Shown: in pieces, positions 7,583 to 58,217 of the stretch
Layout of the letters: every line of letters begins with the position of its first letter
Numbering within the stretch: position 1 is the stretch's first letter
Assembly (NCBI GenBank): GCA_965207075.1
Contig: CBDBLO010000002.1
Span: 2,214 to 66,213 of the forward strand
Origin: Nitrosopumilus sp.
GTDB lineage: Archaea; Thermoproteota; Nitrososphaeria; Nitrososphaerales; Nitrosopumilaceae
Length of the DNA: 64,000 nucleotides
Reading direction: 5' to 3'
Notes under the pieces: model-generated
Told to the model about the DNA's origin: nothing
What the model saw: the letters and a program-made list of their open reading frames with translations, nothing else
Databases searched by the model: none
Made by a program: the position numbers and the translations under genes

Positions 7583-7685
7583 ACAACAAGTCCCACCCCG
7601 GCGCTATAAAACATTGTGTGTGGAAATAGTCCATTATTTCCAATTTTTAAGAAACAGATAAATACAGACACGCCCCAGCTACCGC

Positions 7686-7937: not shown

Positions 7938-8428
7938 GTCCCATCCACTTTTTTATCAGTGGCTGTCGCGGGCCGGTGAAAGGTGCGCCGCCACGGGGCT
8001 CCAAAGGATCGGGCAGTCCAAGGCGGAGGCGGCAAGGCCGTGCCCGGCCTGCGGCCTCGTGTTTGCACGTGGGGGAAGCAGGATACCGGCCGAGGTATGA
8101 GGCGCCGGAGAACACGGCAGCCACGCAAGCCTGAAATTGCCAGCCCCTTCCTGAGGCGGCCAAGATGCTGCGAGTCCTGTCATTGGGCCTGAGAGGGCCC
8201 TCGGCCGTGGCGCCCGGCGAGTACCGCAGAAAAGTAGCGCGAACGGCTCTCCTGCAGAGGCGCGGAGGCTGCGCGGCCTCCATGACACGCCTGCCCGACA
8301 GCATCCATTACGACTACCGGTTGATGGCAATCGGGCGCCTTGGATTGGCACCGGCGTTTTTCCCACCCCAGCAAGGGAGCCGCGCGACCGCAAGTCTTTT
8401 TAGCCCACTTTGCGACGTAGTGTCAACT

Positions 8429-16870: not shown

Positions 16871-17293
16871 ATGTCAGACGACGGCAACGGCGCCGCGGCC
16901 AAGGAGTGGGACGAGCTGTGGGGGGAGTATTCAAGGTCCCTTGAGAACTGGAAGAGGATGTACGAGCAGGCCCAGGCCGCAAGCGCCGAGATGCAGTCCA
17001 GGTTCAACGACGTCTGGAAGAAGACGACGGTGGACACCAGCTCCGACACGATGAAGCTCTTTGCGGAGAACTGGCAGGACGCCATGCGCGACGCGGGCAT
17101 AAAGTCGTTCAGGGAGTTCAGCGAGGGATGGCAGAGGGCCCTCAGCGAGTCGGGAACCGGCGGGTTTACGCAGTTTGCAGAGAACTGGCAAAAGTCCCTG
17201 GGCACTGCGGGCCTCGAGCAGATGAATTCGTACGGCGAGATGCTCAAGCGGTTTGCCGAGACCTGGAATGCGATGTGGCCGAAGAGGGTCTGA
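16871..17293 (+). CDS. Helical repeat protein (F-x-E-x-W-Q repeats); C-terminus rewritten by a TnpB element insertion
   Basis: FAENWQ/FSEGWQ/FAENWQ/FAETWN repeats; TTTAAT box upstream; stop TGA lies inside the element's left TIR. Confidence 0.75.
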   Translation: MSDDGNGAAAKEWDELWGEYSRSLENWKRMYEQAQAASAEMQSRFNDVWKKTTVDTSSDTMKLFAENWQDAMRDAGIKSFREFSEGWQRALSESGTGGFTQFAENWQKSLGTAGLEQMNSYGEMLKRFAETWNAMWPKRV

Positions 17294-18869
17294 TACGGAA
17301 TTCAAAAAATGCCCTAAATAGGGTTGGTGAGAAATTCATTTTCCACCACCCGCAAGCGGCGGGCGGATGGCACACCCTCGGGTCGATTCGGGATTCGCGC
17401 CTGAACGTGCTCCGAGTTTTAAAAATTTTAGGTACAATGCCTCAGTCGATCCGGGTGTGTGCGCGGCGGGCGCGCAGATAAAGATATAACGGTAATTTAC
17501 CGTACAAATACTATGTTTACGTACCGAAAGTACCGCGTGCGCGCGTTGCTGACCGCGGAGCAGAGGGGGGAGATCCGGCGCCTGCGCGACGGACAGCGCC
17601 AGGCATACAACTGGGCCGTCTCAAGGCTGAGGGAGGGGTGGCCCCGGAACGACGAGTACGGGCTCTACAGGGAGCTCACCGCACAGAGGAGCAGGCACGA
17701 CTGGCTCCGCGCCGTCCCGGCTGTCATACAGCGCGCCGGAATCCGCGACGCGTTCACGGCCTCCAGGCTGTCGGCGCGGTACGGCCGCGGCGAGCCAAAG
17801 TACCGCTCCAGGAAACGCGGCCCGGGCGCGCTCAGGTGCCCGTTGGCGCCCCGCATGGTGGATCCGTGCCGCATCAGGCTCCCCTGCTTTGGCGCGGTAC
17901 GCGCGTGCATCCCGGATGAGATCATGGAATACGAGCCGCGCGCATACGAGTTCGTCCCGCACAAGGGCGGCTATCTGCTGTACGTGTCGTGCCGCGTCGC
18001 CGTGCAGGGTCAGCGGCCGCCGTCCGACGGGCCGGGCGCCTCGCGCGTGACGGTCAAGGGCGTCGACCGCGGTACGGTCGAGCCAACCGTCGTCGTCACG
18101 CTGAACCCGGACGGCAGCACGAGGAGCAAGGACACGTATGACACGGCGGCGCCCTTCCGCGACGACAGGGCCGGGCATCAGAGGAGGCAGTCCAGAATGA
18201 GCAGGAGGATGAACAGGCGCTCCGGGAGATACAGGCGGCTCCGCGCCAAGACGAGGGGGCAGCTGCGGAGAGTACGAAACCGCCGGACATACGCGGAGTG
18301 CGTGGCCGCAAAGCACGTCGTGGACGACTACAGCCCCCACACCATAGTGCTCGAGAGCCTGAACCTGTCCGGGATGACCCGCCGCGGCGGCCCTTGCAAA
18401 AAGGGCATGAACCGCGAGATGCGCTTTGTCCGACACCATGCAGTCGAGCAGCGCATCCGCAACCGCGCAGAGATGCGCGGGATCCGCGTAACCGCGACCA
18501 GCCCGCATTACACCTCGCAGACATGCTCGCGCTGCGGCCGCGTGGACGCGAAATCCAGGGTCACGCGCGACATGTTCAAGTGCACAGGGTGCCATTACAT
18601 TCAGCACGCGGATGTCAATGCCGCGTTGAACATCGGAAGGCAGGGACTGCCGACGCCTTCTGACGAGGACACGCAAGAGGCAGTCCCCGACGGAGGTTGG
18701 AACCCCTTCGTGAGACGCGAACTGGACGTGCGCCTCAATTGTTTTGTCGAGGGCCCCGCAAGGGGGCGCGAGAACCAAGTGCCTGCACGTCACCTTGCCC
18801 ACATGGGCATGGAGAAAGAACGTCAAAGGACCAATGGGGCCCGCAAGGGCTGAAGTTGGTACCAACCCC
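17286..18869 (+). mobile_element. TnpB-only element 1 with 19-bp imperfect TIRs and a 9-bp TSD
   Basis: TSD GGCCGAAGA at 17277-17285 and 18870-18878; left end GGGTCTGATACGGAATTCA; right end reverse complement GGGGTTGGTACCAACTTCA. Confidence 0.9.
17513..18853 (+). CDS. tnpB: TnpB RNA-guided endonuclease
   Basis: N-terminal HTH (YRVRALLTAEQ); RuvC D (GVDRG), E (VLESL), D (ADVNAA); zinc finger CSRC/CTGC. Confidence 0.93.
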   Translation: MFTYRKYRVRALLTAEQRGEIRRLRDGQRQAYNWAVSRLREGWPRNDEYGLYRELTAQRSRHDWLRAVPAVIQRAGIRDAFTASRLSARYGRGEPKYRSRKRGPGALRCPLAPRMVDPCRIRLPCFGAVRACIPDEIMEYEPRAYEFVPHKGGYLLYVSCRVAVQGQRPPSDGPGASRVTVKGVDRGTVEPTVVVTLNPDGSTRSKDTYDTAAPFRDDRAGHQRRQSRMSRRMNRRSGRYRRLRAKTRGQLRRVRNRRTYAECVAAKHVVDDYSPHTIVLESLNLSGMTRRGGPCKKGMNREMRFVRHHAVEQRIRNRAEMRGIRVTATSPHYTSQTCSRCGRVDAKSRVTRDMFKCTGCHYIQHADVNAALNIGRQGLPTPSDEDTQEAVPDGGWNPFVRRELDVRLNCFVEGPARGRENQVPARHLAHMGMEKERQRTNGARKG

Positions 18870-18925
18870 GGCCGAAGAGCAACTATTAGAGACAAGAATA
18901 AAAGCACCACTATGGTACGCCCGCC

Positions 18926-20438: not shown

Positions 20439-20499
20439 TGCGTCGGACTGGGTCGCGTGCACGACTCTGTGATGTCGCGGGTGCGTATATTGATATCCG

Positions 20500-20973
20500 T
20501 CACAACCCGAGCGCCCGCTCCCACTGCCTGTTGTATTCGGCAAGCAGCCCGGCCTGCACGCGGCGGAGGGCGTGTCCCTGGGACGCGGCGGCGGCCGCGG
20601 CGGCCCTCGCGTGCTGTATGGCGCTCTCCGAGCAGGCGTCCTGCCATCTCCCGGCCCAGTACAGGCCGGCCCCCTTGAGCAGCTCCGTGTCCAGGCCGAC
20701 TGCCCGGTGGCACAGGTCAAGGTAGGAGGCCGCCGCGCGTATCGCGGACCCCTGCAGGACTACGGCCGACTCGGTCCAGCCCGCCAGGGCCGCGCGGTAC
20801 AGGTCCCACGAGCGCTCGAGGTCCGGGGTGGCGGCGGGGAACGTCGGCAGCAGCGGCCCGGGTGCTACGGCGGCGGTGGCCGCGGCGCCCTGCCGGATCG
20901 GTGATGACGATTTCTTGCCGGGGGACTTCTTTGCCTTCTTCTTGCCGCCCTTCTCCTTCTTGCCGCCGGCCAT
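20500..20973 (-). CDS. Hypothetical helical protein with a Lys-rich N-terminus
   Basis: MAGGKKEKGGKKK, then amphipathic helices with spaced Trp. Confidence 0.55.
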   Translation of the reverse strand: MAGGKKEKGGKKKAKKSPGKKSSSPIRQGAAATAAVAPGPLLPTFPAATPDLERSWDLYRAALAGWTESAVVLQGSAIRAAASYLDLCHRAVGLDTELLKGAGLYWAGRWQDACSESAIQHARAAAAAAASQGHALRRVQAGLLAEYNRQWERALGL

Positions 20974-26798: not shown

Positions 26799-26893
26799 GA
26801 ACTTCTTTATATGTTATAGATTAACCACCCTGAACTTCTTTATATGTTATAGATTAACCACCCTGAACTTCTTTATATGTTATAGATTAACCA
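26799..26893. repeat. 33-bp tandem repeat, 2.9 copies, containing a TATA-like box
   Basis: GAACTTCTTTATATGTTATAGATTAACCACCCT at 26799, 26832 and 26865 (last copy 29 nt); no spacers. Confidence 0.95.
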
Positions 26894-27221
26894 TTCTCGC
26901 AGGAGCGGCATGCCGGAAACGGCGGCGTCGATAGCCCGGCAGGATGCCTGATCCCGGGGGCCTGCACGGGAGAGTCCAAGAAATCTGCAAACTCCCCGGA
27001 CGCGTCCCTCGTACAGGCAAAATCAAGGTCCTCGGAGAATCTGAAGTCCGCAAAGTATGCCTTCTTCAGGGCCGTCCCCCCCCCCCCCCGAAGACCATCT
27101 CGCCCAGCCTTGGAAAACTCGAGATTCTGTACAGCAGGACCGTTGGGACATAGTCCTTTTCAAATATTCCAACCGGCACCCGGTTCCTGCGCGCCGGCTT
27201 CCTGAGTGTGATCTCGTCCAT
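26887..27221 (-). pseudogene. AbiEii-type nucleotidyltransferase toxin, frameshifted and truncated
   Basis: MDEITL...IFEKDYV...MVF-[G14]-TALKKAYFADFRFSEDLDF; the 14-nt C run at 27076-27089 breaks the frame. Confidence 0.75.
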
Positions 27222-27292
27222 CAGCTGCCCCTCCAAGACAGCAAGTCGCCGTCCGACAGCCCGACTGTCATGCGGTAACGGGGCGACGTCTT
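27221..27292 (-). pseudogene. Probable C-terminal remnant of an AbiEi antitoxin
   Basis: KTSPRYRMTVGLSDGDLLSWRGS*, with its stop overlapping the toxin ATG (TGATG); cut by element 3. Confidence 0.4.
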
Positions 27293-28778
27293 GGGAATTA
27301 TACGCATTAGTTCATCGCCGTCATTACCGCTGTAATGGCGGCCCCGAACCGAGCATATTTTGGGCGTTGTTTCTCCGCTCCGTTTTGGAGTGGTGACGAG
27401 CCGATGCTTGGTTTTCGCATCCCCCCTCCGCGGGGGAGCCCGCGGCCAAAAACCTGCCGCGGCGCGCGTCCAGTTCGCGCCTCACGAAGGCCATTCCCGC
27501 CTCCGGAGGGCCTGCCTCCTGCGTGGTGTCGGCGGGGCGCAGGCCGGCCCTCCCGATTATTATGGCGGCGCTTACGTCCGCCTGCTGAGTGTAATGGCAC
27601 GACACGCACCTGAACGTGTCCCGCGTCACGCGGGAGTCACTGTCCGTATGGCCGCACCCCGGGCACTTCTGGGACGTGTAGTGTGGCGCGACATGCTCCA
27701 GAACGACCCCCTCCATCTCGGCGCGGTTCCTGATCCTTTGCTCTATGGCGTGGTGGCGCACAAAGCGCATCTCGCGGTTCAGGCCCCTCTTGCGGGAGCC
27801 GCCCCTGCGGGTCATGCTTGATAGCTTGAGATCCTCCATGACGATTGCGCGTGGGCGGCCGGTCAGGCAGATCTCCTTTGCGGCGACGCACTCCGCGTAC
27901 GTGCGGCGGTTGAGAGCGCGCCTGAGCCTTTTGTTGAGCATGCAGAGGTGGTCACGGTACCGCCCGGACCTCCTGTTCTGTTTTGAGAGGCGGCTCTGAT
28001 GCCTTTGGTACGAGGTGCGGCCGTCCTTGAACGCGGAGGCCGTATCGTACGAGTCGGCGGCCAGCGGCCTGCCGCGGAGGTCCAGAGTTACCACAACGGT
28101 GGGCTCGACCGCGCCGCGGTCCACGCCCTTGATCGTCGTGCCGGGGCCCGTAGAGCGGGCGGCGGGAACTCCGACGCGGCAGGATACGTACAGCGTGTAT
28201 CTGTCGCCCACGATCCGGACGAACTCGTACGACCTGGGCTCTCCTGCAAGCAGCGCGTCGGGGACGTCGCACCTGACGGTTCCGAACCGTGGGAGCTTTA
28301 TCAGGCGCCTGTCAACGACGGTGGGCGCCAGGGGACACTTGAGCGCCGCGCCGCGGCCAGATTTTCTGGTCCTGTATCTCAGTTCTGATATGGTGTTGCG
28401 GCCGCGCCTCAGCATTGACTTGGCCGCCGTAAACGCGTCCCTGATTCCGGCGCTTTGGATGGCTCGGGGTACGGAGCGCATCCATTCGTCGCCGCCGCGC
28501 TTGTGCTGGGTGAACCTTGCGGACAGGCCGTACTCGTCGTTGGGATCCCACCCCTCCCTGAGGTTGGAGACGGCCCAGTTGTACGCGTGGCGCTGTCCGT
28601 GTCGCATCCTGGTGACATCCGCCTTCTGCTCCGCGCTCAGGCGGACGGGAACGCGGTACTTTCGATACGTAAACATGAGATTATTACGGTACTATACGGT
28701 AATAACGTTTTCGGGCGGGCAGGCGGCGGGGACAGTGGCAGTAGTGTGGGCGGCAGTGAACTAATGTATATAATTCCC
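27293..28778 (-). mobile_element. TnpB-only element 3 with 22-bp TIRs
   Basis: GGGAATTATACGCATTAGTTCA (27293-27314) vs reverse complement of 28757-28778 GGGAATTATATACATTAGTTCA (20/22); flanks GACGTCTT / GATGTGTT match 6/8 (possible decayed 8-bp TSD). Confidence 0.85.
27324..28676 (-). CDS. tnpB: TnpB RNA-guided endonuclease (divergent paralogue)
   Basis: MFTYRKYRV start; RuvC GVDRG / VMEDL / ADVSAA; CPGC/CVSC zinc finger. Confidence 0.93.
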   Translation of the reverse strand: MFTYRKYRVPVRLSAEQKADVTRMRHGQRHAYNWAVSNLREGWDPNDEYGLSARFTQHKRGGDEWMRSVPRAIQSAGIRDAFTAAKSMLRRGRNTISELRYRTRKSGRGAALKCPLAPTVVDRRLIKLPRFGTVRCDVPDALLAGEPRSYEFVRIVGDRYTLYVSCRVGVPAARSTGPGTTIKGVDRGAVEPTVVVTLDLRGRPLAADSYDTASAFKDGRTSYQRHQSRLSKQNRRSGRYRDHLCMLNKRLRRALNRRTYAECVAAKEICLTGRPRAIVMEDLKLSSMTRRGGSRKRGLNREMRFVRHHAIEQRIRNRAEMEGVVLEHVAPHYTSQKCPGCGHTDSDSRVTRDTFRCVSCHYTQQADVSAAIIIGRAGLRPADTTQEAGPPEAGMAFVRRELDARRGRFLAAGSPAEGGCENQASARHHSKTERRNNAQNMLGSGPPLQR

Positions 28779-28976
28779 GATGTGTTGTTCTGGATCATAT
28801 CCCATAAGACGAGGCATCTAGGGTTATAGCTGTTTTGTTCTTGGAACGAAACTTCCGTTTAAAGGAAGTATTGCTACATAAAATATTACAGCCGGTTGGA
28901 GGGGTAGGTAGCAACGGTGATCACGCGTCCGCCGCTGGCCGGGCCTCGGGGCAGCCGGGCGCCCGCCCCCCTCTCT

Positions 28977-30632
28977 TCACGGGCCGCGCCCGTTTGCGCC
29001 GTCCCCCGTGCCGCCGCACAGGGCCCCGATCGCGTCCCGGATCTCCCTCGCGTGCCTGTCGCTCATGCAGACGATCCTCGCGACCTCGCCGATCAGCGCG
29101 TCTGGGTCCGGGGAGCCCCCCGCGCGCAGCATCTGCTGCAGCCTGTTACGCACCGCGCGCACCTCGGCCTGGTCGTCCCTGCCCGGGCCGGCGGCGTCCC
29201 TGGCACCGCCGCGACCCGCCCCGGACGCGGCGGCGCCCCGGTGCCCGCTGAATATGTTGAGCATGTGGGCCGCCTTTGCGTACTCCGCCCGCACGGTCTC
29301 CCCGTATAAAATGGACTGCTTCTCGTACACGTCCTTTGGCTTGTGCCCTATCACGTGGTCGGCCACGTCCATCCGGCAGCCGCACTCTATGAGCGTGGAC
29401 TTTAGGAGGGAGCGCATCTCGTGCGAGTCCACGCGCCACGAGTTCTTGCCGGTCTTCTGCTGCACGCCGGAGCCCCAGGCCAGCCTCGAGAACGCGTTGG
29501 TCACCCACCCGCTCCCGATCGGCTTTAGCGCGCTCGACAGGAACAGCGGGAGATCCCCGCTCATGCCGCCCCCCGTCCTTGAGCGGCGCCAGTCCAGGTA
29601 CTCCTGCACGGCGGCCACCGCGTCCCGCTCCAAAAACCCCAGGTGCGTGTACCCCGTCTTCAGGCGCGTCAGAGTGACGGGCACGGGGCACCTGTCCAGG
29701 TCCCATCCGTGGTGGTCCTCCGTCCCGAAGTGGCGCGCCATCTGACCCCAGGCCTCAAAGTTGAACCGGTCTATCAGCGTGGAGACGTCAAGCCCCCTGT
29801 GCAGCTTGCAGAGCATCGCGGCCTTTTCCGTTATGGTGGGGCGCGCGGCAGTCAGCATCCTGCGCACGTCCCCGAGCGTGAGCGTCTGGATCGTCTCCGT
29901 GTTGTCGTACGTGGCGGCCGGGTCGAATGAGACCTCGATCCCCTGCTCGTTGCGCTTGAAATATGACAGTATGGCGTTGCGGGTCGAGGCCATCGTCGAC
30001 GCCCTCTTTCCCCGGTGCGCCGGGTCCATCAGGTACCTCTTCACTATGACGGCAACGTCCGAGCGTACTGCCAGCGGCCTGGCAAGCAGCTCTATCAGAT
30101 CCTCGACGCTCTCAAAGGCGGCCTGGCTCACGCGGGTATGGGAGCCGCCTGCCAGCATGCGCCCCCCGGAGCACCTCTTCCTGCCGCCTCCCCGGTGCCT
30201 TGCCACGTGGACTTCGTGCGTGCCGCTTGTGAGCCACCTGTTGAAGCGCCACAGGTGCCTCGCGTACGACGAGCGCGTGGTGTTGGCCGAGCCGCCGACG
30301 TTGGTCCTTGTACTGCCGCGGAGCTGGCCCAGCCAGAACGAGACGGTCCTCAGGCTCAGGAACTCGTCGGGTATGTGCCCGTCCTCCACCCTGTCAAGGG
30401 CGCCGGTTTTTGCGACGGCGGCAAGCCCGCGGCTCACAACCGAGATGGCGGTGGAGTCGTTTGCCGGCAGGCGGGGCCTGTGCTCGCTGTAGACCTCCCT
30501 GCAGGTGAGCCTCCTGCCGGGCTCGAAAGACCCGAATATGCCCACCAGCCTCTTTGGGACCTTGGCTCGCTCATAGTCGGCGGCAGTCGGCCTGCGTATG
30601 ACCGCGTACGTGATCTCGGGCCTGCCGTTCAC
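28977..30632 (-). CDS. Tyrosine recombinase/integrase with N- and C-terminal extensions
   Basis: Catalytic set R (LHRGLD), K (RLKTG), HxxR (SHEMR), H (VIGH), Y (DVYEK). Confidence 0.85.
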   Translation of the reverse strand: MNGRPEITYAVIRRPTAADYERAKVPKRLVGIFGSFEPGRRLTCREVYSEHRPRLPANDSTAISVVSRGLAAVAKTGALDRVEDGHIPDEFLSLRTVSFWLGQLRGSTRTNVGGSANTTRSSYARHLWRFNRWLTSGTHEVHVARHRGGGRKRCSGGRMLAGGSHTRVSQAAFESVEDLIELLARPLAVRSDVAVIVKRYLMDPAHRGKRASTMASTRNAILSYFKRNEQGIEVSFDPAATYDNTETIQTLTLGDVRRMLTAARPTITEKAAMLCKLHRGLDVSTLIDRFNFEAWGQMARHFGTEDHHGWDLDRCPVPVTLTRLKTGYTHLGFLERDAVAAVQEYLDWRRSRTGGGMSGDLPLFLSSALKPIGSGWVTNAFSRLAWGSGVQQKTGKNSWRVDSHEMRSLLKSTLIECGCRMDVADHVIGHKPKDVYEKQSILYGETVRAEYAKAAHMLNIFSGHRGAAASGAGRGGARDAAGPGRDDQAEVRAVRNRLQQMLRAGGSPDPDALIGEVARIVCMSDRHAREIRDAIGALCGGTGDGANGRGP

Positions 30633-30685
30633 ACACCACGCGTTGCGCCAACCTTACTTAATGCGCCGTGTCAAGAAACACTCGC

Positions 30686-30847
30686 AACTGGATAAATTTT
30701 TTTTGACAGGCTCGCCGCCGCACGGGTTCGCCCGCCGTGCGTGGGGCACCCGCGGCTCGGGGTCCGCGCCCGGCTGCTGGGGGTGGGGGGAGCGGGTGGA
30801 GGCGCGAACCCATACAGGCCATCATCATCATCAGCACCAACAACGCG
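30686..30847 (+). promoter_or_regulatory. Disrupted promoter/leader of S-layer copy A
   Basis: CTCGC-AACTGGA-TAAATTTTTTTTGACAGGC vs CACGC-TTATAAG-TAAATTTTTTTGACAGGC upstream of copy B; 108-bp insertion between ACAGGC repeats; ATG replaced by GCG (30845). Confidence 0.75.
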
Positions 30848-30887
30848 CAAAAGCGAGACCTACAGAAAATATACTAGCATAACGCTA

Positions 30888-33800
30888 ATGGCAATCATGG
30901 TCGCCGGGGGGCTGACCTTTGCCGTACCGGGCGCGGACCCCGTGTTTGCAGAAGTGAGCACGTCGAACCCGAACCTGTACGTATCGGCAGAGGGACAGGA
31001 CCCCGACAACATGTTTGCCGAAGGAAACATAATCGAAGTAATAATTAGAGACGATTCAATAGGAGATACAGACGAAGGAGAGGCGGAGCCCGAAGTTACC
31101 GTAAACGGAGCGGACCTCCGGATGCTGCAGACTGCCAACGGCTACTGGACGGCGTACTTTGCCGAGGTGGACGCGCTGGCGGGCGCAGCTGAAAGCCTCC
31201 CCTACGGTGTATACTGTAGCGAGACTGCCGCGTCAGCGGTGACAGGTCTTCCGCTCAGCGACGGCAACGGCGTATACCTGCCGCCCGGCTCCAACTGTAA
31301 TGATTCCAACACCAGCGCCAACGGCCACCCCCTGATAAGGGAGCCGCGCGACCTGACCAACTATGACGGCAACTCGCTGGGACAGCTTGGACTGTCCAAC
31401 GCGAACCTTTGGCCCTTCATCCAGGTATACGACTTTACGTCACTGACTGACGTCGACATCGTCTACAACAAGGGCGGCGATCGCCAGACCGTCACCCTGA
31501 CGTTTGACGACCCGTCAGAATCCCACTCGCTAGACCGCACCAAGTACCCGCAGGGCGCTCACGTGCACATCGAGCTGATGGACTATGCACTGAACATAGA
31601 CCCGACAGACGAGGACACGTGGGTGTTCGACACCCAGAACGGTGGGGCGTACTACAACGTGTTTGACGAGGACGGAAACCCGAGCTCTGAGATCAACGCA
31701 GTTGGCTCGGAGGCCGGCATCGACGAGACCGTAAGCATAAACCGCGGCGCACAGGGCAACGACGTGATCGACTGCCAGGTGACAAAGGACTTTGGAATAC
31801 AGGAGGAAGATAACGCGAGCCGCGACTACCTCGTGGTCGATGACTATGGCGCCTGCGTGCCCAACGTGGGCCTGGTCGCCGGCGCGGACGACGTGTTCAC
31901 GCCCGGCAACTTTGCCATCGGATTCGTGGAGGACGGCTCCAACAACAACGTATTCATCAACTGGGCCGAGGACCAGAGGTCCAACATCGTCGTAAAGAAA
32001 GACGCGCTGAGGGGCAACAGCTTCGAGGTGGACTACAGCTCTCCGGACGCAAAGTCCGGGGTCATAGGACACTTCTTTGCCGAGCTCGCGCTCGACGTGC
32101 CTGACGACACCTGGAACTCTGGCGAACGCATACCCATAACGCTTACCGACGAGGACGCCAACGTCAACCCACTCGCAGAGGACAACCTCGAGGTGGCCAA
32201 CCCGTACAGCCTGCTGGTGCCATCCATCAGGATCGGCTCGCCGGTCACGCTGGCGTCGGCCACAGGCGACGTGGTATGGTTTGACTTGGCAGATCCGCTT
32301 CCGCCTGACACCACAGATCCGGTGATCAGACTCACCGGACCCTCGGAGATCAGGCTGAACGTGGGCGACACCTATACCGAGCGGGGCGCCACGTGTACTG
32401 ACGCGAGGGACGGCAACCTAACGGTCTCCCAGACGTCGGCTGCACCCAACACTAACGTGGCAGGCACGTACACGCTGATGTACACTTGTACCGACACTGC
32501 AGGAAACTCGGCTTCCGTTACCAGAGTGGTAACCGTCGACGATCCTGACAGACCCGATACTGACATGCCCGTGATTACCGTGAACCCGGGCACCGACACC
32601 ATAACTGCCGGTGACACCTGGACCGACGCGGGAGCCAGCTGTACGGATGCCAGGGACGGGCCACTGACCGTGACCACGACTGGCACCGTCACCAACACTG
32701 CACCGGGCACCTACACCATAACGTACGCCTGTGAGGACAATGCAGGAAACTCCGCAACCGAGACTAGGACCGTAACCGTAAATGCCAGACAGGCTACGAT
32801 ATCACTGACCGTCGACCCAGGCCAATGGGATGACGGGGTTATCGAGCTGGACATAAGCGGAACCACGGTCAACGTCGCCGACGGCATCGTTACACTGACG
32901 TCAGATACCATTCCCAACTTTGGCGAGTATGACGTTACAGTAACCAGCAACGTGATATCAGGGATGATACCCTTTGCCAACGTTACGGTGTCCGGCACCC
33001 ACACGTTTACGGCAACGACTTCTGACGGCTCAATTAGTGGCAGCGACACGGCAAACATACCGCCGGCTATGTCACTCACCAACGTGGTTCACATAGACTC
33101 ATGGATCGATGCTGACGATGTTCCTACCGCGGATCGTGACTACATTACGCTACGGGTCGCAGGTACGGAATCCGTGTCTGGCCCTGTTACCTTGTCAGTA
33201 CTTGATGAGGACGGCGAGCTAACTGACAAGCTTGGCTTACCTGTACAGTTTGGCGACAACGGCCAAGTGCGTATCAACATCACGGATACATCCATACAAG
33301 GACCAACCCAGTTTGTCCTGACAACCACCTACGCTGGCGTAACTTCAACCTCAAACAGCTGGACTGCGAACATGCCCGTACTGCTTACCCTAGACGACAT
33401 CATCGTAAACGAATGGGACAATGGTTCACTCATACTGAACATCACAGGTACCAAGCAAGCAATCGTACCGAATGGCGGAGGCAGCGACAATGTCGATGTC
33501 CGCGTATCTGGTACTACTACAATCGTAGGTAGCGTTGAGGGTTACAGTGACGGTGTGGTAAACGGCACAGTAACACTTGCCGACACCGACTGGGCATTAT
33601 CCGGCACTACCGTACAGTTCGAACTGGTGGAAGACACAAATACTCCGACGATTTTCACGTCAGATCCCGTAGCCAGGGACATACCCTCGATCCTGACCAA
33701 CCTGCAAGTTACCACAACCGGTAGCAATGCGGGCCAGTGGAACGACGGGAACTTTGAGGTAAGGGTGACAGGATCCAGCGACGGCATTCCCGAGGATACC

Positions 33801-36800
33801 CTGATTAACTTGGAAGCGGACAACGGAGAGGCATGGATCCCAGTTGTAACCGGTGCTAATACACCAGGTTTACTACAGATACTGGCTGGCGGCGACATAC
33901 GCGCCACGGTATCCATAGATGACATCAACCTGTCCGGAAACACCGTGTTCAGACTGGTGACTGCTACCAATGGCGCTACATCCAACAACTCGACTGCCAT
34001 AAACATCCCATCCGTATTTACCTCTCTGCCGGTCATCACGGCAGATTCTGACGGCTGGGGTGGCGACAATAACATCGACATAAACGCACTGGGAACCTCC
34101 GGTCTGGCCGATGCCACGACCCTGCAACTGCGGGTGTCGACAGGCGGCGCATTTACGGACGTAGGGGCCACCAGTACCATTGCCGCCGATGCAAATGGCG
34201 CTATCAACCACACTGGATCCTTGACCGACCTATCACTGTCCGGAACATCAGCCACGTTCATACTGCAAGCCACTACCAGTGGTATTATTGTAATGTCAGA
34301 CAACGTGACCGTAAGCATACCTGCGGCACTGACCCTGGCAGACGTGAGCTTTGGTAATGCAGGATGGACGGGTGAAGAAGGCTCTCAAGTACTCAACCTG
34401 TTTGTAACAGGCAGCACCACGCTGACGGTTGGTAACGGGGCATCACTAGAATACTACAACGAAGCCACTGAAACTTGGGTTCCTGTTCCGGTCGACGGCG
34501 ATGGCCCCGCTCTCGTGGGTACAATACCTGACGACGGCGCCATAGCAGATGCGCAGGTAATCCTAGATGATCCAGAGCTGGCGGGCGACACAGTCCAGCT
34601 CAGACTGGTCTCAACTGATGATACAACCACGGCAGCATCGGCACCCATAACAAGGACCATTCCGGCACTGCCGCCATCAAGCAGCAGCGTCGACATGGCA
34701 CCCACGCCGATATCCTTCTCCGCACAGAACGGATTCCCGCCCATAACTAGGGCAGTAATCAACGACATCAGCGAGATACCGGCCGTGCACAACGTGCAGG
34801 CCTCATCACCGGTGGCAATATACACCTGGTCAGATGACGACAAGACCGTAGAGGCGTTCAGCGACAGGCTCAGACTATCCGAGCCTTCCGAGAGGAACAC
34901 CATAACGGGCAACTCGAAGATCGTCATATACGGATGGGAGCCACCCACGTTTGCCGACGGCGTCACAACGCTGTTCAACTGGAACTTTGGTTCCATACTG
35001 AGCGACAGCATCGCGGCCGGCACGATCATAACCGAGATCAGGCTTGCAAACGCAGCCCACACCGAAAGTGTGCTACTGGGCGACGGTGAATCCGGCCTGG
35101 TGGACATCACTGCCATGAAGGACGACATCGAGGCCCTCGGAGATACCGTAGACCTGGTCATCATGATGGACAACACCAACATCGACCACGTGTGCGGCGA
35201 CATTACGTTGGTTGCTGACTTCTTCACGTTCGGACAGAACGACGATGACGGTAGGGTGAACAACGCCATATACCGCATCGAGGTCGAGGAGGCCAGCAGC
35301 AACTCTGCCGACTTTGAGGGCACCGTGGAGTACACCATGCTCAACCAGCTGAACATCGACGATCCGGCCACGTACACGGGCCTGAGGACCATCTCAGACC
35401 AAGTGTCGATCATAGTCCACGAGGACTTTACCGACGAGGACTCCGTGAGGGTCAACTATCTCGACTTGGGCGCCGACGGCGTATCAACCCAGATAGCGAT
35501 CCAGCAGGCGGCCCCGACGCACAGCGCCGTGGTCTCCTTTGACGCGGAGAGCTACAAGGTTGCCGACACCGTTACGATAACGCTGGAGGATGCCGACCTC
35601 AACGTCCAGAACGACGTGATAGACATCTACACGTTCTCATCTGAACTCACGGACTACATCGGAGACGACAAGGCCTACATCCTCGACGTCACATTTGACG
35701 ACGAGCTATGGACCTCCGGAGAATGTGAGGGAGCCGACGGATTTGCATCCACCGGCTTCACGCTGCAGGAGACTGCGGCAGGCTCCGGCGTCTTTACGGG
35801 CGACTTCCAGATACCCGAATACTACTGCCAGTCGAGCACCACCACCATGGTCTCCGTAACCGGCGTGGACATTGAAGTCAACTATCAGGACTTCCGTGAC
35901 GCGTCCGGCGAGGAGATCGAGGTCGGAGCGGGAGCGGCGGTTCGTGCCAACACTGGTACGGTATCGCTTGACCGCACCGTATACCCGGTGCCGTTCGCGG
36001 CAGACGTGTTCGAGCACACCACAGGCACGCTCGGCCAGCACGATCTGACGGTCCACGTCACCATAGACGATCCGGACTTTGACATATCGGCTGCCGGCGA
36101 GGACGTGATATCCAACGCCACCGAGTACCTGACCGTACAGGTCATACGCGGCTCGGCATCCCAGACGATCGACCTTGACGACGCGCAGATCCTCGAGACC
36201 GCGCCCGACAGCGGCGCATTCGAGCTTGACCTGCCACTCGCGTACGACGCCGGTCCGGACGGATCGATACTGCAAGGAGACATCCTGCAGGTCGAGTACC
36301 GCGACCCGACTGACGCGTCAGGCGAGGAGAACACCGTCACAGACTCTGCTACCTTCGACCTGCGCAACGGCGTGCTCCAGTCCGACAAGTCCGTCTACAT
36401 CATCGGCTCAGACATGATCCTGACGCTGATAGAGCCGGACCTTGACCTGGAGAACGACGGCGCCGAGTCCTACACGCTCGACCTGATCGAGTGGGACTCT
36501 GACGCAGCGACGCTCGGCATGGACAACCCAGTGTTCGATCCAGAGCCATCCGAGCTCCGTGAGACTGGAGACTCCACCGGAATATTCCAGGTGATAGTCG
36601 AGATTCCCGCGGAGATCGACGGCGACCGCCTCGAGAGGGGTGAGGAGATCGAGCTCGAGTACGTTGACTGGGGTCCGTCAGGCGCCGACTATGTCGGCGA
36701 CGAGAGTGAGGACGTCGGACTGACGGTATTCACCTCCAACTTTGGCGCGACCATCGAGCTGGACCAGAAGGTGTACACGTGGACCGACAAGGTCTACATC

Positions 36801-37874
36801 ACCATCGTGGCGCCAGACCACAACTTCGACTCCGCACTTGTCGACGAGATAGGCGACTCCAACCTCGACCCGATACAGGTATCCACGCGCAGTGCCGACA
36901 TCGACAACTACAAGCTTGTCGAGACCGGTCCTGACACGGGAATCTTCACGGGTGAGGTGATCCTTATCGGATTCGACCACAACGCGGACGGCGACACCGA
37001 GACTGGTACCGAGGCAGGTTATGACAACCCGCAGCGTGACACCAGCCCAGACGGCAGCGGACCCACCAACGGCTACCTCCAGACTGACGATGACGACGGC
37101 ATCACCGTCTCATTCGAGTACTCTGAGGACGAGACCGTAGTGGGCTCTGCTCTCATCAGGTGGAACATAGGCGAAGTGCAGTGGCTCGAGTCATCGTACC
37201 CGGCATCCGGCACAGGAGTGGTCAGGGTCATCGACCCAGACATGAACTGGAACCCGGAGGCAGTGAACAACTTTGTGGTTGACGTGTGGTCAGACGCCGA
37301 CAACGGCGGAATCGACCTCACCGTAACCGAGACCAACGAGGCGACCGGAATATTCGAAGGCACGGTGTTCTTCACCATAACCGACGAGTCGTCCGGGCAC
37401 CGCCTCCGCGTCGCAGAGGGCAACACTGTAACGGCCGAGTATGAGGACAACACGCTACCAGACCCGTACACGACAGCAGACGAGCTCGACATAACGGCAA
37501 CCACGCTGATCGGCACCATCGTGCCTCCGCTGGAGAGGGCGCCCGCAACCAACCTTAGGATTGTGGATGCCTTCGGCAACAGCCTAGACACGGTGTCTGC
37601 AGACCAGCAGGTGCAGATCGTGGCAGACCTGGCCAACGGCCAGGACCGCTCCCAGGCCTTTGCCTATCTGGTACAGGTCCAGGACGCAAACGGTGTCACG
37701 GTCGCGCTCTCCTGGATATCCGGAACGCTGGAGGCAGGACAGTCACTGAGTCCGTCAACATCATGGATTCCATCCGAGGCGGGAACCTACACGGCAACCG
37801 CGTTCGTATGGGAGTCAGTTGACAACCCGACTGCCCTATCGCCGCCGGTCACAACCGACATCACCGTAAGCTAG
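30888..37874 (+). CDS. Large thaumarchaeal-type S-layer protein, copy A (probably a silent cassette)
   Basis: Reading frame open to 37874 (ORF track starts at GTG 30741); N-terminus YRKYTSITLMAIMVAGGLTFA, acidic beta-rich body, DUF5011-like Ig repeats, C-terminal ...SWIP..AGTYTATAFVWES; 30888 is the first ATG inside the homologous region. Confidence 0.85.
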   Translation: MAIMVAGGLTFAVPGADPVFAEVSTSNPNLYVSAEGQDPDNMFAEGNIIEVIIRDDSIGDTDEGEAEPEVTVNGADLRMLQTANGYWTAYFAEVDALAGAAESLPYGVYCSETAASAVTGLPLSDGNGVYLPPGSNCNDSNTSANGHPLIREPRDLTNYDGNSLGQLGLSNANLWPFIQVYDFTSLTDVDIVYNKGGDRQTVTLTFDDPSESHSLDRTKYPQGAHVHIELMDYALNIDPTDEDTWVFDTQNGGAYYNVFDEDGNPSSEINAVGSEAGIDETVSINRGAQGNDVIDCQVTKDFGIQEEDNASRDYLVVDDYGACVPNVGLVAGADDVFTPGNFAIGFVEDGSNNNVFINWAEDQRSNIVVKKDALRGNSFEVDYSSPDAKSGVIGHFFAELALDVPDDTWNSGERIPITLTDEDANVNPLAEDNLEVANPYSLLVPSIRIGSPVTLASATGDVVWFDLADPLPPDTTDPVIRLTGPSEIRLNVGDTYTERGATCTDARDGNLTVSQTSAAPNTNVAGTYTLMYTCTDTAGNSASVTRVVTVDDPDRPDTDMPVITVNPGTDTITAGDTWTDAGASCTDARDGPLTVTTTGTVTNTAPGTYTITYACEDNAGNSATETRTVTVNARQATISLTVDPGQWDDGVIELDISGTTVNVADGIVTLTSDTIPNFGEYDVTVTSNVISGMIPFANVTVSGTHTFTATTSDGSISGSDTANIPPAMSLTNVVHIDSWIDADDVPTADRDYITLRVAGTESVSGPVTLSVLDEDGELTDKLGLPVQFGDNGQVRINITDTSIQGPTQFVLTTTYAGVTSTSNSWTANMPVLLTLDDIIVNEWDNGSLILNITGTKQAIVPNGGGSDNVDVRVSGTTTIVGSVEGYSDGVVNGTVTLADTDWALSGTTVQFELVEDTNTPTIFTSDPVARDIPSILTNLQVTTTGSNAGQWNDGNFEVRVTGSSDGIPEDTLINLEADNGEAWIPVVTGANTPGLLQILAGGDIRATVSIDDINLSGNTVFRLVTATNGATSNNSTAINIPSVFTSLPVITADSDGWGGDNNIDINALGTSGLADATTLQLRVSTGGAFTDVGATSTIAADANGAINHTGSLTDLSLSGTSATFILQATTSGIIVMSDNVTVSIPAALTLADVSFGNAGWTGEEGSQVLNLFVTGSTTLTVGNGASLEYYNEATETWVPVPVDGDGPALVGTIPDDGAIADAQVILDDPELAGDTVQLRLVSTDDTTTAASAPITRTIPALPPSSSSVDMAPTPISFSAQNGFPPITRAVINDISEIPAVHNVQASSPVAIYTWSDDDKTVEAFSDRLRLSEPSERNTITGNSKIVIYGWEPPTFADGVTTLFNWNFGSILSDSIAAGTIITEIRLANAAHTESVLLGDGESGLVDITAMKDDIEALGDTVDLVIMMDNTNIDHVCGDITLVADFFTFGQNDDDGRVNNAIYRIEVEEASSNSADFEGTVEYTMLNQLNIDDPATYTGLRTISDQVSIIVHEDFTDEDSVRVNYLDLGADGVSTQIAIQQAAPTHSAVVSFDAESYKVADTVTITLEDADLNVQNDVIDIYTFSSELTDYIGDDKAYILDVTFDDELWTSGECEGADGFASTGFTLQETAAGSGVFTGDFQIPEYYCQSSTTTMVSVTGVDIEVNYQDFRDASGEEIEVGAGAAVRANTGTVSLDRTVYPVPFAADVFEHTTGTLGQHDLTVHVTIDDPDFDISAAGEDVISNATEYLTVQVIRGSASQTIDLDDAQILETAPDSGAFELDLPLAYDAGPDGSILQGDILQVEYRDPTDASGEENTVTDSATFDLRNGVLQSDKSVYIIGSDMILTLIEPDLDLENDGAESYTLDLIEWDSDAATLGMDNPVFDPEPSELRETGDSTGIFQVIVEIPAEIDGDRLERGEEIELEYVDWGPSGADYVGDESEDVGLTVFTSNFGATIELDQKVYTWTDKVYITIVAPDHNFDSALVDEIGDSNLDPIQVSTRSADIDNYKLVETGPDTGIFTGEVILIGFDHNADGDTETGTEAGYDNPQRDTSPDGSGPTNGYLQTDDDDGITVSFEYSEDETVVGSALIRWNIGEVQWLESSYPASGTGVVRVIDPDMNWNPEAVNNFVVDVWSDADNGGIDLTVTETNEATGIFEGTVFFTITDESSGHRLRVAEGNTVTAEYEDNTLPDPYTTADELDITATTLIGTIVPPLERAPATNLRIVDAFGNSLDTVSADQQVQIVADLANGQDRSQAFAYLVQVQDANGVTVALSWISGTLEAGQSLSPSTSWIPSEAGTYTATAFVWESVDNPTALSPPVTTDITVS

Positions 37875-37909
37875 TATATACACAAAAACACACAGAAAAA
37901 AATTTCCCC

Positions 37910-37928
37910 TTTTTTCTTTTTTTATTTT
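37910..37928 (+). terminator. Archaeal oligo-T terminator of S-layer copy A
   Basis: TTTTTTCTTTTTTTATTTT just downstream of the stop. Confidence 0.75.
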
Positions 37929-38259
37929 GGACTAACAGCGGATGCTGTGACCGTCAGGTTGTAGCATGCGCAAATCCGCGCTATGCTGTATCCAGAGACT
38001 TGGTCGACGAGCAGCAAAAATGGTAATCAAGTACGTGACGTCCCTTGCTGCATGTAGGACGATAACGAAATATGGAATAATTTCCGACCAGCTAACGTGA
38101 AAGATCTACGAGTGCGTCCGACCATGTTAAAGCGGGTTCATCCACCGCGCCGTTCTGCGACGAGTTTTCTTTGCGCGTTTTATTTTCTGCATGTGGGCAA
38201 CCGACGGTTTTTGGGCTGGGCTTGGACATAACCTCTGAAGTCATGGAAGGATTGCACTA

Positions 38260-39364
38260 GAGTGACGATCATTGAAAATTTCGCTTCACACGCAGCGGTA
38301 CAGAAATTTGTAGATGTCAAGCCTGATTGGGCACGTCCTGAAATATTCGGACACAGCATGCGTCAGATCCTCCCGCGTCTCGTAGTGTTCTGAGGTGACA
38401 AGCCTGTACTTTGCATCCTTCCATACGGACTCGACTGCGCTGAGCTTCGGTGTGGCGGTGGGCAGGTACAGGATCTCCACCCCGTCGTGTTCCTTCAGGT
38501 ACTTTTTCACCTCCCTGTGCTTGTGCTGGCTTGCGTTGTCCGCTACGAGCAGGACCCTGCCCCACTTGCGGCGCACCTTCCTGAGATACCGTACGAACGT
38601 CGGGCCGTCGAACTTCTCATACTGCCGCATCAGTCTCGTTCCATCCTCTGCAAGCGTGCCGAACACGACGGTCCGATCCCTCCTGCCGTGCCGGCTGACA
38701 GTCACGGAATCCCCGACGCGCGACCACAGCTTCCTTCCGTTCGTCCCCGTTCTGAGAAATATGGACTCGTCCTGCACCGCGATCGTCAATCCGCGCCTTT
38801 TTGCACCCGATATCGTGCCTGCGGCGTCGGCCTGCCACTGCCTTACCGCGTCGGCGTCGGCAGCCGAGGCGTACAGGGTGGTCGACCTCTTGGACGAGAA
38901 CCCGAGGCGTCGCAGGATCCTGCGCACGCTGCACAGGCTGTACCGGATGTACAGCCTCTCCCGTATCCAGTTCCGCAGCTTTCTCGGGGTGAGCGTGTTC
39001 CTGCCTGCAAGCCTGTCGGCCACCCTCCTGATCTGGCCGTACCTTGCGCGTGAAGCCCTGCCCCTCCCGGGAGCGTCCCGGAGGCCACCGATGCCGTCCT
39101 CGTTGAACCGGGCAACCCACAGTTGCACCGTTCGCTGGTCCACGTCTGCAAAATCAGACGCGGTCCTTGTCGAGTGGCCCTTGAGCACACCCAGGACAGC
39201 CATCATCCTGTTGCGGATCCTGACGTCCCTCTCTGCACGCATGGCCTCCTTCAGCTCCCAGATCTTCTTGCTGTTCTCGATCATGGATGGGGCGGCGATC
39301 CGGCGATCAATAAGCTTTTCTGCGGTTGTCCATCATGAGGCGAAATTTTCAATGAGCGTCACTC
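38260..39364 (-). mobile_element. IS630/Tc1-mariner family IS
   Basis: TIRs GAGTGACGATCATTGAAAATTTCGC / GAGTGACGCTCATTGAAAATTTCGC (1 mismatch); TA on both sides (38258-59, 39365-66) in a CTAG context. Confidence 0.93.
38286..39284 (-). CDS. IS630 transposase (intact, single frame)
   Basis: Two HTH regions; DDE triad QDES / ADNAS / AVESVW. Confidence 0.93.
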   Translation of the reverse strand: MIENSKKIWELKEAMRAERDVRIRNRMMAVLGVLKGHSTRTASDFADVDQRTVQLWVARFNEDGIGGLRDAPGRGRASRARYGQIRRVADRLAGRNTLTPRKLRNWIRERLYIRYSLCSVRRILRRLGFSSKRSTTLYASAADADAVRQWQADAAGTISGAKRRGLTIAVQDESIFLRTGTNGRKLWSRVGDSVTVSRHGRRDRTVVFGTLAEDGTRLMRQYEKFDGPTFVRYLRKVRRKWGRVLLVADNASQHKHREVKKYLKEHDGVEILYLPTATPKLSAVESVWKDAKYRLVTSEHYETREDLTHAVSEYFRTCPIRLDIYKFLYRCV

Positions 39365-39609
39365 TAGTGGACGCTCTGACAGCTTGAATGCGCCGCGGTT
39401 AAATGATGCGTCCATCTACCCATGAGATGATATGGGCAGCCACCCCCGTATTCAACACCGCCGTTATCCGCAATCCGTCGCCGGCCGGATACAACGGCGG
39501 CCGCCATAGCAACATTATGGCCAAGTTTTACGCCCAAACGCCGGCAAATCAGAATAGAGGTGCCATGCTTGTGCAATCATGTGACGGTCACAGCATCCGC
39601 TGTTAGTCC

Positions 39610-56740: not shown

Positions 56741-58217
56741 GGGGTTGGTACGGAATTCAAAAAATGTTCTAAATGGGGGTTGGTGCCAAATTCATTTTCC
56801 ACCACTCGCAAGCGGCGGGCGTGCAGAAAGATATAAACGGTAATTTACCGTACAAATACTATGTTTACATACCGAAAGTACCGCGTGCGCGCGTTGCTGA
56901 CCGCGGAGCAGAGGGGGGAGATCCAGCGCCTGCGCGACGGGCAGCGCCAGGCGTACAACTGGGCCGTCTCAAGGCTGAGGGAGGGGTGGTCCCGGAATGA
57001 CGAGTACGGGCTCTACGGGGAGCTCACCGCGCAGAGGAGCAGGCACGACTGGCTCCGCGTCATCCCGGTTGTCATACAGCGCGCCGGAATCCGCGACGCG
57101 TTCACGGCCTCCAAGCTGTCGGCGCGGTACGGCCGCGGCGAGCCAAAGTACCGCTCCCGGAAGCGCGACCCGGGCGCGCTCAGGTGCCCGTCGGCTCCCC
57201 GCGTGGTGGATCCGTGCCGCATCAGACTCCCCGGCTTTGGCGCGGTACGCGCGCGCATCCCGGAGGAGATCATGGAATACGAGCCGCGCGCATATGAGTT
57301 CGTCCCGCACAAGGGCGGCTATCTGCTGTACGTGTCGTGCCGCGTCGCCGTGCAGGGGCAGCGGCCGCCGTCCGGCGGGCCGGGCGCCTCGCGCGTGACG
57401 GTCAAGGGCATCGACCGCGGTACGGTCGAGCCAACCGTCGTCGTCACGCTGAACCCGGACGGCAGCACGAGGAGCAAGGACTCGTATGACACGGCGGCGC
57501 CCTTCCGCGACGACAGGGCCGGGCATCAGAGGAGGCAGTCCAGAATGAGCAGGAGGATGAACAGGCGCTCCGGGAGATACAGGCGGCTCCGCGCCAAGAC
57601 GAGGGGGCAGCTGCGGAGAGTACGAAACCGCCGGACATACGCGGAGTGCGTGGCCGCAAAGCACGTCGTGGACGACTACAGCCCCCACACCATAGTGCTC
57701 GAGAGCCTGAACCTGTCCGGGATGACCCGCCGCGGCGGCCCTTGCAAAAAGGGCATGAACCGCGAGATGCGCTTTGTCCGACACCATGCAGTCGAGCAGC
57801 GCATCCGCAACCGCGCAGAGATGCGCGGGATCCGCGTAACCGCGACCAGCCCGCATTACACCTCGCAGACGTGCGCGCGCTGCGGCCGCGTGGACGCGAA
57901 ATCCAGGGTCACGCGCGACATGTTCAAGTGCACAGGGTGCCATTACATTCAGCACGCGGACGTCAATGCCGCGTTGAACATCGGAAGGCAGGGACTGCCA
58001 ACGCCTTCTGACGAGGACACGCCGGAGGCAGTCCCCGACGGAGGTTGGAACCCCTTCGTGAGACGCGAACTGGACGTGCGCCTCAATTGTTTTGTCGAGG
58101 GCCCCGCGAGGGGGCGCGAGAACCAAGTGCCTGCACGTCACCTTGCCCACCTGGGCATGGAGAAAGAACGTCAAAGGACCAATGGGGCCCGCAAGGGCTG
58201 AATTTGGTACCAACCCC
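56741..58217 (+). mobile_element. TnpB-only element 2 with 19-bp TIRs and a 9-bp TSD
   Basis: TSD TGTCAAGCG at 56732-56740 and 58218-58226; TIRs GGGGTTGGTACGGAATTCA / GGGGTTGGTACCAAATTCA (17/19). Confidence 0.95.
56861..58201 (+). CDS. tnpB: TnpB RNA-guided endonuclease (close copy of 17513..18853)
   Basis: GIDRG / VLESL / ADVNAA RuvC triad; CARC/CTGC zinc finger. Confidence 0.93.
   Translation: MFTYRKYRVRALLTAEQRGEIQRLRDGQRQAYNWAVSRLREGWSRNDEYGLYGELTAQRSRHDWLRVIPVVIQRAGIRDAFTASKLSARYGRGEPKYRSRKRDPGALRCPSAPRVVDPCRIRLPGFGAVRARIPEEIMEYEPRAYEFVPHKGGYLLYVSCRVAVQGQRPPSGGPGASRVTVKGIDRGTVEPTVVVTLNPDGSTRSKDSYDTAAPFRDDRAGHQRRQSRMSRRMNRRSGRYRRLRAKTRGQLRRVRNRRTYAECVAAKHVVDDYSPHTIVLESLNLSGMTRRGGPCKKGMNREMRFVRHHAVEQRIRNRAEMRGIRVTATSPHYTSQTCARCGRVDAKSRVTRDMFKCTGCHYIQHADVNAALNIGRQGLPTPSDEDTPEAVPDGGWNPFVRRELDVRLNCFVEGPARGRENQVPARHLAHLGMEKERQRTNGARKG

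Follow-up and report, generated by a model that had tools for sequence, protein, structure and literature searches.

Element 3, a 1,486-bp mobile element (27293..28778, minus strand, on which its tnpB gene lies) within a 64,000-nucleotide stretch of the Nitrosopumilus sp. contig CBDBLO010000002.1, carries IS1595-type ends with a TnpB in place of the transposase. The stretch as a whole, referred to here as the window, belongs to a Nitrosopumilaceae archaeon of high GC content (61%) from sponge metagenomes, and it also holds two sister elements, 1 and 2, whose TnpBs belong to the same clade. Our observations support a stable tie between this clade and DDE-type ends, with terminal inverted repeats (TIRs) and target-site duplications (TSDs) of 8-9 bp being the rule, which was one of two possibilities raised in the original prediction made from the DNA, the other being repeated swapping of ends. 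Because element 3 has IS1595-type ends and no transposase gene, it is in our judgment probably a non-autonomous IS1595-type transposon that carries a TnpB and its guide RNA (ωRNA) and is moved in trans.

The original prediction had placed the element at 27285-28786, with 22-bp TIRs and a possible decayed 8-bp TSD; these coordinates comprise element 3 plus both of its 8-nt flanks, and the TIRs themselves were confirmed. The right-end (RE) TIR, on the 3' side of tnpB, occupies 27293..27320 with its 22-nt core at 27293-27314 (GGGAATTATACGCATTAGTTCA), and the left-end (LE) TIR, on the 5' side, occupies 28751..28778 with the inverted partner of the core at 28757-28778 (GGGAATTATATACATTAGTTCA); the repeat can be written GGGAATTATAYRCATTAGTTCA. 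Between the two arms there are two mismatches in the 22-nt core and four in the full 28 nt, to which they can be extended at 86% complementarity. When up to three mismatches were allowed, the 22-mer had only these two matches in the window, and none in 100 shuffles. The TIR tips are the boundaries of the element, because homology to its closest relatives stops there: the copy in L001 (OZ242041.1; TnpB 88% identical in amino acids), which sits at a different site, is homologous at the DNA level from 28778 to 27294 exactly and no further, while L010 (TnpB 91% identical) has identical ends at a third site, flanked by TAAAGAGAT and TAAAAAGAT.

The duplication at element 3 itself is less clear. The flanking 8-mers, GACGTCTT at 27285..27292 and GATGTGTT at 28779..28786, do agree at six of eight positions (or seven of nine) and may be decayed TSD copies, a match that is weak taken alone, as at least 6/8 is reached by 4% of offset controls. 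In minor contigs of runs X1 and X2, element 3 is absent and 27292 is joined to 28823, so that one break of this element-free allele falls exactly at the RE tip (27292/27293) and the other 44 bp past the LE tip; the 8-mer GATGTGTT is missing from this allele together with 28779-28822. Because of this second break, the TSD of element 3 remains unproven.

The interior of element 3 is filled by TnpB, whose gene is the sole long open reading frame (ORF) with a family match (27324-28676, minus strand, 450 aa). The protein matches Pfam Cas12f1-like_TNB (PF07282, 58.9 bits vs a cutoff of 26.3) and NCBIfam guided_TnpB (NF040570, 117.7 bits vs a cutoff of 100), and its best match among solved structures is also a TnpB (9nzp, 5e-11), whereas it falls far under the cutoffs for IS200_TnpB (41 vs 425 bits) and IS607_TnpB (55 vs 350 bits). 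It is of the same lineage as the TnpBs of elements 1 and 2, as had been claimed: the motifs MFTYRKYRV, GVDRG and EMRFVRHHA are all present, and the identity to both is 56%. Across 24 aligned homologues, the RuvC residues D186/E281/D367 and four zinc-finger cysteines (CxxC...CxxC) are invariant, and with catalytic residues and zinc finger intact the element 3 TnpB is predicted to be an RNA-guided nuclease. The stop codon at 27324 lies 31 nt from the element tip at 27293, and the final ~60 codons overlap the predicted ωRNA. The C-terminal ~60 residues are unusually conserved in the same alignment, probably because the DNA beneath them folds into a shared RNA structure.

The association with TIRs and TSDs extends across the clade. 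In sixteen copies the ends could be defined, the most distant (L018, L019) at 35% amino acid identity, and all of them have TIRs that begin GG(G). When flanks were scored with a boundary shift of 1 nt allowed and with offset positions as controls, a check that the original prediction had called for, nine of the 16 matched perfectly over 8 bp, 12 matched at 7 or more positions (0.5% of controls) and 13 at 6 or more (4% of controls). Duplications of 9 bp were seen for elements 1 and 2, L018b, L015 and L019, L010 matches at 8/9, and L001 at 7/8 with its empty site in the window. The TSD sequences differ at every site, i.e. there is no fixed insertion motif. Element 1 (17286..18869, plus strand) is bounded by a perfect 9-bp TSD (GGCCGAAGA, 17277-17285 and 18870-18878), as is the 1,477-bp element 2 (56741..58217, plus strand; TGTCAAGCG, 56732-56740 and 58218-58226); the two elements are nearly identical to each other, and their TIR, GGGGTTGGTRCNNAATTCA, is unlike that of element 3. 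Polymorphic insertions and empty-site alleles show that these sister elements were recently mobile. In a minor contig of run X2, 1,486 bp are missing at element 2, the length of the 1,477-bp element and one copy of its TSD together. L001 and L015 have the site of element 1 unoccupied, with the 9-mer present once, and in runs X2-X5 the element-free allele is the major one.

One target site has been hit more than once. The site TGTGACGG (20497..20504, minus strand) is empty in the window, whereas L001 carries an element-3-type copy there and L015 another family member. Two independent insertions at a single 8-bp site imply strong target selectivity. The target reads T[G/C]TGACG[G/A] across the three sequences, and it is filled in the same orientation in L001 (2895-4384) and L015 (3923-5345), with surrounding flanks that are 92-94% identical. 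The L015 element encodes a TnpB that is ~55% identical in amino acids, is 65-72% identical in patches of DNA, and has a GGGAAC-type TIR.

The identity of the ends emerged from viral sequence. The original prediction had proposed matching the TIRs to insertion sequence (IS) families with 8-bp TSDs, naming IS1595 among them, and this match was borne out. Scanning IMG/VR viral contigs with the TIR pattern GGGAATTATAYRCNTNRGT gave 108 loci, dominated by a few recurrent 22-mers, and 43 of these contain an IS1595 transposase, compared with none of 90 loci from two control patterns (GGAAC-type and element 1/2 TIRs, the viral scans of which gave chance matches only and were kept as negative controls). 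In several viral loci, inverted TIR pairs 1.1-2.1 kb apart are bordered by perfect 8-bp TSDs (CATCGAAG, TTGAGTAT and CTCCAAAG), and between the TIRs lies a protein of 289-314 aa with matches to Pfam DDE_Tnp_IS1595 (1e-41) and Zn_ribbon_IS1595, and to NCBIfam IS1595 (198 bits vs a cutoff of 75), with plasmid homologues that are annotated as IS1595 family transposases. The TIR variant GGGAATTATATACATTAGTCCC, which stands beside IS1595 transposases in five viral loci, is identical to the LE of element 3 at 20 of 22 nt, including both positions left free in the pattern, and the TIRs of element 3 and of the IS1595 elements both begin GGGAATTATATAC. The GGGAAT subtype of TIR is found as well on the most distant members of the clade, L018a and L019.

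Non-autonomous derivatives also exist for IS1595. Copies of 285 bp resembling miniature inverted-repeat transposable elements, with IS1595-type ends and the 8-bp TSD CAAATTAT, occur in L026 (2223-2507) and L092 (2715-2999). In L080 (7525-8737; IMG/VR contig 3300043777_000086), an unrelated 390-aa TnpB (guided_TnpB, 248 bits; 28% identity to the clade TnpB over ~110 aligned residues) stands alone between IS1595-type TIRs (GGGAATTATATACATGAGT and GGGACTTATATACTTAAGT), with the tnpB stop codon falling within the TIR and no clear TSD visible. Because this TnpB is unrelated and yet lies between the same kind of TIRs, its capture by IS1595-type ends is not unique to the Nitrosopumilaceae clade. Viral IS1595 elements also carry passenger ORFs (L028 1971-3852, L063 5447-7405 and L082 708-2831), of which the L028 passenger is PAPS-reductase-like and the L063 passenger has no Pfam match.

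At the 3' end of tnpB, covariation and a profile match (nhmmer, 27505-27293) predict an ωRNA scaffold of ~213 nt (27293..27505, minus strand) that ends at the element tip, and because it ends there the TIR forms its final 20-25 nt. In an alignment of the last ~210 nt of 12 elements (A2), standard pairs fill 94.6-95.4% of cells, compared with 86% in shuffled and 37-50% in slid controls, and compensatory changes are seen at 14 of 33-34 pairs, compared with 7.6-7.9 ± 1.5 in shuffled (0 of 500 reaching 14) and 1-6 in slid controls. The profile has three matches in the window, that of element 3 and those at 18691-18867 and 58039-58216, each at the 3' end of a tnpB, and it found no stand-alone ωRNA copy in the 64 kb. 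In element 3, the loop of hairpin 1 (GGGAAU, 27493..27498, minus strand) is predicted to form a pseudoknot with the final six nucleotides, AUUCCC (27293-27298), next to the guide. Across the clade, this loop reads GGAAU where the tip is ...AUUCC(C) and GGAAC where the tip is ...GUUCC(C), with the covarying pair 13-253 being CG in six sequences and UA in five, and loop and TIR tip agree in type in 17 of the 18 complete GGAAT- or GGAAC-type elements. In elements 1 and 2, a UUGG loop faces a CCAA tip. A pseudoknot adjacent to the guide is typical of ωRNAs, as in the ISDra2 structures, and we read the predicted loop-tip pairing as such. RNAalifold had at first paired the TIR with an internal GAACUG (helix 2); the pseudoknot with the hairpin loop, which is free of mismatches in the GGAAT and GGAAC types, took its place, and the idea of an uncompensated end swap in element 3 was dropped along with helix 2.

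The covariation of loop and tip bears on how the different TIR sets are related. Three subtypes are present (GGGAAT..., GG(G)AAC... and GGGGTTGG...), and the original prediction had called the TIRs of element 3 unrelated to those of elements 1 and 2. Their sequences indeed differ; the sequence comparison, in which LE tip, RE tip and RNA loop change in step, nevertheless argues that they are co-evolving subtypes of a single end family rather than unrelated sets. The suggestion of repeated end swapping thus fits less well than co-evolution of ends and RNA. Ends may occasionally have been replaced as well, given that the tree of TnpBs is poorly resolved: in a neighbor-joining tree of TnpB cores the subtypes are not cleanly grouped and the GGGAAT type is paraphyletic.

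If element 3 is indeed a non-autonomous IS1595-type transposon, a DDE transposase of the IS1595 family, whose gene lies elsewhere in the genome or on a virus or plasmid, would bind the TIRs, excise the element and insert it at staggered cuts, giving the 8-9-bp target duplications. Transcription past the RE tip into the TSD and the neighboring DNA would then produce a site-specific guide, which would be read from the flank because the RE tip is the precise end point of the predicted ωRNA. Judged from the usual layout of TnpB ωRNAs, the putative guide of element 3 is AAGACGUCGCCCCGUUACCG (27273..27292, minus strand), and AAGACGTCGCCCCGTTACCG and GGCCGAAGAGCAACTATTAG are candidate guides for element 1 or element 3 against the reconstructed empty sites. 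TnpB may cleave element-free copies of the site and thereby favor repair from the occupied copy, as has been proposed for IS605/IS607 TnpB. The outermost nucleotides of the TIR would do double duty, forming both the end on which the transposase acts and one strand of the ωRNA pseudoknot, and this would explain the joint change of TIR tip and RNA loop across the clade.

Several observations weigh against this account. Besides the imperfect flanks of element 3 (6/8) and an element-free allele that is not a clean empty site, no transposase gene lies beside tnpB in any of ~20 clade loci, and a tblastn search with three IS1595 transposases found nothing in the window or in ~190 kb of related archaeal loci. 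A match to IS1595 elements was obtained for the GGGAAT subtype alone, and the collections scanned held no IS1595 partner for TIRs of the GG(G)AAC or GGGGTTGG type. All three subtypes were recently active in close strains, whose flanks differ by only ~7%, and either several transposases or one tolerant enzyme would be needed. In the sponge runs, IS1595-like fragments are mostly at 2-8x depth, compared with 50-160x for the archaeon. A further weakness is that no conserved target-adjacent motif (TAM)-like motif precedes the TSDs on their 5' side, where there is only a vague G/T richness. Two IS1595-like contigs in run X6 match the depth of the archaeon in that run, ~24x, and a partner transposase is plausible because IS1595-type transposases have been reported in Thaumarchaeota, on a fosmid (PMC3379541). 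A search for homologues of the IS1595 transposase, dominated by close relatives, had none on the 2,185,281-bp and 2,098,239-bp contigs among the matches listed, and the IS1595 element was without a counterpart in a phage collection. When metagenome sequence was scanned for the element 1/2 TIR, the 120 matches were isolated chance occurrences, and neither TnpB nor IS1595 lay close to any of them.

The missing partner for two of the subtypes, together with the absence of an IS1595 gene from the archaeal sequence examined, would also fit a different trans-acting enzyme that makes 8-9-bp staggered cuts, from another family or an unrecognized archaeal one, the IS1595 likeness being ancestral or convergent. 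We regard this as unlikely, since an identity of 19-20 of 22 nt with IS1595-flanking TIRs is hard to obtain by chance or convergence, and no other transposase was found to share these ends. The one apparent candidate, the transposase of an IS66-like IS in L019, was rejected as a partner, as it belongs to a separate, abutting IS with different TIRs of its own. This IS (6327-8316; TIRs GGTACACACTCAAC) has a split transposase ORF and is inserted directly after the right-end TSD of the TnpB element, which is where the ωRNA guide would be read.

The flanks of element 3, its single copy in the window and the differences between its TIR arms might alternatively mark it as an immobile relic, an old insertion whose TSD has decayed and whose TnpB is either retained or in decay, with only elements 1 and 2 active. 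This is quite unlikely given that the ORF and the catalytic residues are intact, that relatives with 88-91% amino acid identity are present at different sites in other strains, one of them with its empty site in the window, and that minor contigs in two runs are without element 3.

It is improbable, in our view, that the elements mobilize themselves, with TnpB and ωRNA recognizing or cleaving their own ends, e.g. by pairing of the ωRNA loop (GGAAC/U) with the TIR tips, and with integration at staggered breaks producing the 8-9-bp duplications. Such a mechanism would suit a clade (35-100% amino acid identity) that is solo in ~20 loci and yet recently mobile; the covariation in 17 of 18 elements would give each lineage an end specificity of its own, several TIR subtypes are active in parallel, and two different members inserted into one and the same 8-bp target. 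Against this, the ends are those of true IS1595 elements that encode a DDE transposase and have the same TSD, TnpB is dispensable for, and no catalyst of, IS608/ISDra2 transposition (PMC13565253), and the loop-tip pairing is equally explained by an intramolecular ωRNA pseudoknot. More speculative still, and very doubtful, is an RNA-specified TIR/TSD transposon that has no protein transposase of its own kind, in which the ωRNA loop would guide TnpB or a generic host enzyme to the ends and perhaps to the targets; if true, RNA-specified ends would explain both the coexistence of active end subtypes and the 8-bp site that was hit twice. That these are ordinary IS200/IS605 (IS1341-group) TnpB-only elements, which a Y1 TnpA acting in trans would mobilize in single-stranded form, the inverted repeat being incidental, is suggested by the solo TnpB and its 3'-terminal ωRNA but is highly improbable and already contradicted, as IS200/IS605 and IS607 elements have neither TIRs nor TSDs (PMC13565253; PMC3119063) while both are the rule here, empty sites hold exactly one TSD copy, the protein is far under the IS200_TnpB and IS607_TnpB cutoffs, and the TSDs, which differ at every site, are not a conserved target motif.

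TnpB inside DDE-type TIR elements has been published before. According to the survey by Altae-Tran et al. (2023, PNAS, PMC10691335), six TnpB branches are associated with DDE transposases (DDE-1 to DDE-6), all with inverted terminal repeats, and for solo TnpBs whose ends are the same as those of DDE-carrying elements, mobilization in trans is presumed. As in the branches described there, element 3 holds TnpB and ωRNA within symmetrical inverted repeats, with the 3' end of tnpB no more than 250 bp from the end of the element. The families named in the texts consulted are IS630, ISL2 and IS1031, whereas element 3 has IS1595-type ends and its clade an 8-9-bp TSD. The transposase is encoded in cis in at least part of a branch there, whereas none of ~20 clade loci has one in cis, and the host here is a Nitrosopumilaceae archaeon. 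Fanzor1 in eukaryotic TIR transposons (Bao & Jurka 2013, PMC3627910) is likewise a TnpB homologue carried as cargo of DDE-type TIR/TSD elements, often with no transposase in the same copy, although Fanzors are eukaryotic or viral, are larger proteins and belong to other transposon superfamilies. Judged by titles and abstracts, none of the papers found on IS1595 together with TnpB describes such an element, and what differs here is the IS1595-type ends with an 8-9-bp TSD, the all-solo clade, the archaeal host and the covariation of tip and ωRNA.

Element 3 agrees with the IS1595 family in the TIR start and in the presence of cargo, which that family tolerates (a second ORF in L028, L063 and L082), and its clade also agrees in a TSD of 8 bp (9 counting the tip C). 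Element 3 differs from an autonomous IS1595 IS in having no DDE_Tnp_IS1595 gene. For comparison, the TSDs of IS630, ISL2 and IS1031 are 2-3 bp long. With the IS1341 group (e.g. ISDra2 TnpB/ωRNA), element 3 shares a predicted ωRNA that overlaps the 3' end of the gene, stops at the right end and has a guide-adjacent pseudoknot; the absence of TIRs and TSDs, the subterminal hairpins, and the target motif set by TnpA and used also as the TAM, all features of that group, do not apply to it.

The role proposed for TnpB, namely cutting the scarless donor joint left by TnpA and so restoring the element, is tied to IS605/IS607 chemistry, whereas the present archaeal TnpB clade sits inside cut-and-paste-type ends that duplicate their target. 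Since they do, the guide must begin with the TSD, and the TAM cannot be a transposase-defined motif. Recent polymorphic insertions with matched empty sites, and an ωRNA whose predicted 3' end is physically the transposon tip, make the benefit of TnpB to a DDE transposon directly testable, and the clade supplies compact archaeal TnpB/ωRNA pairs with defined predicted scaffolds.

Elements 1 and 2 have a further peculiarity, in that their left TIR is doubled in tandem, 34-35 bp apart (outer copies at 17286 and 56741, inner copies at 17320 and 56776), and their TSD borders the outer copy (17286-17338; 56741-56794). A comparable doubled left end is present in L006 (274-361). The left non-coding stretch is 122 bp long in element 1 (17366-17487) and 14 nt long in element 2, and contigs from four runs that map to element 1 have the shorter, element-2-type left region. 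A fourth TnpB, P0012, is present in the same genome.

Element 3 lies within a segment of ~12.65 kb (26927-39577) that is absent from OZ242041, in which L340 joins the equivalents of 39578 and 26926; with the entire segment missing, OZ242041 gives no empty site for element 3. The segment contains a 551-aa ORF (28977-30632) with weak matches to tyrosine recombinases, together with an inverted duplicate of at least 3.3 kb of a giant surface-protein gene (30741-37874, plus strand, against 39664-46680, minus strand). In the spacer upstream of element 3, a run of ~12 C at 27078-27090 is 5 nt shorter in run X7, and contigs of run X6 diverge from the window at 27292 into unrelated sequence (TACCGTCTTCTTGTAC). 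On the syntenic side of the boundary 26926/26927, a 33-nt AT-rich unit (GAACTTCTTTATATGTTATAGATTAACCACCCT) is repeated three times in tandem (26799-26897), and this unit is also repeated elsewhere, since short contigs of run X7 over it have a word depth of 500-700x, compared with ~45x nearby.

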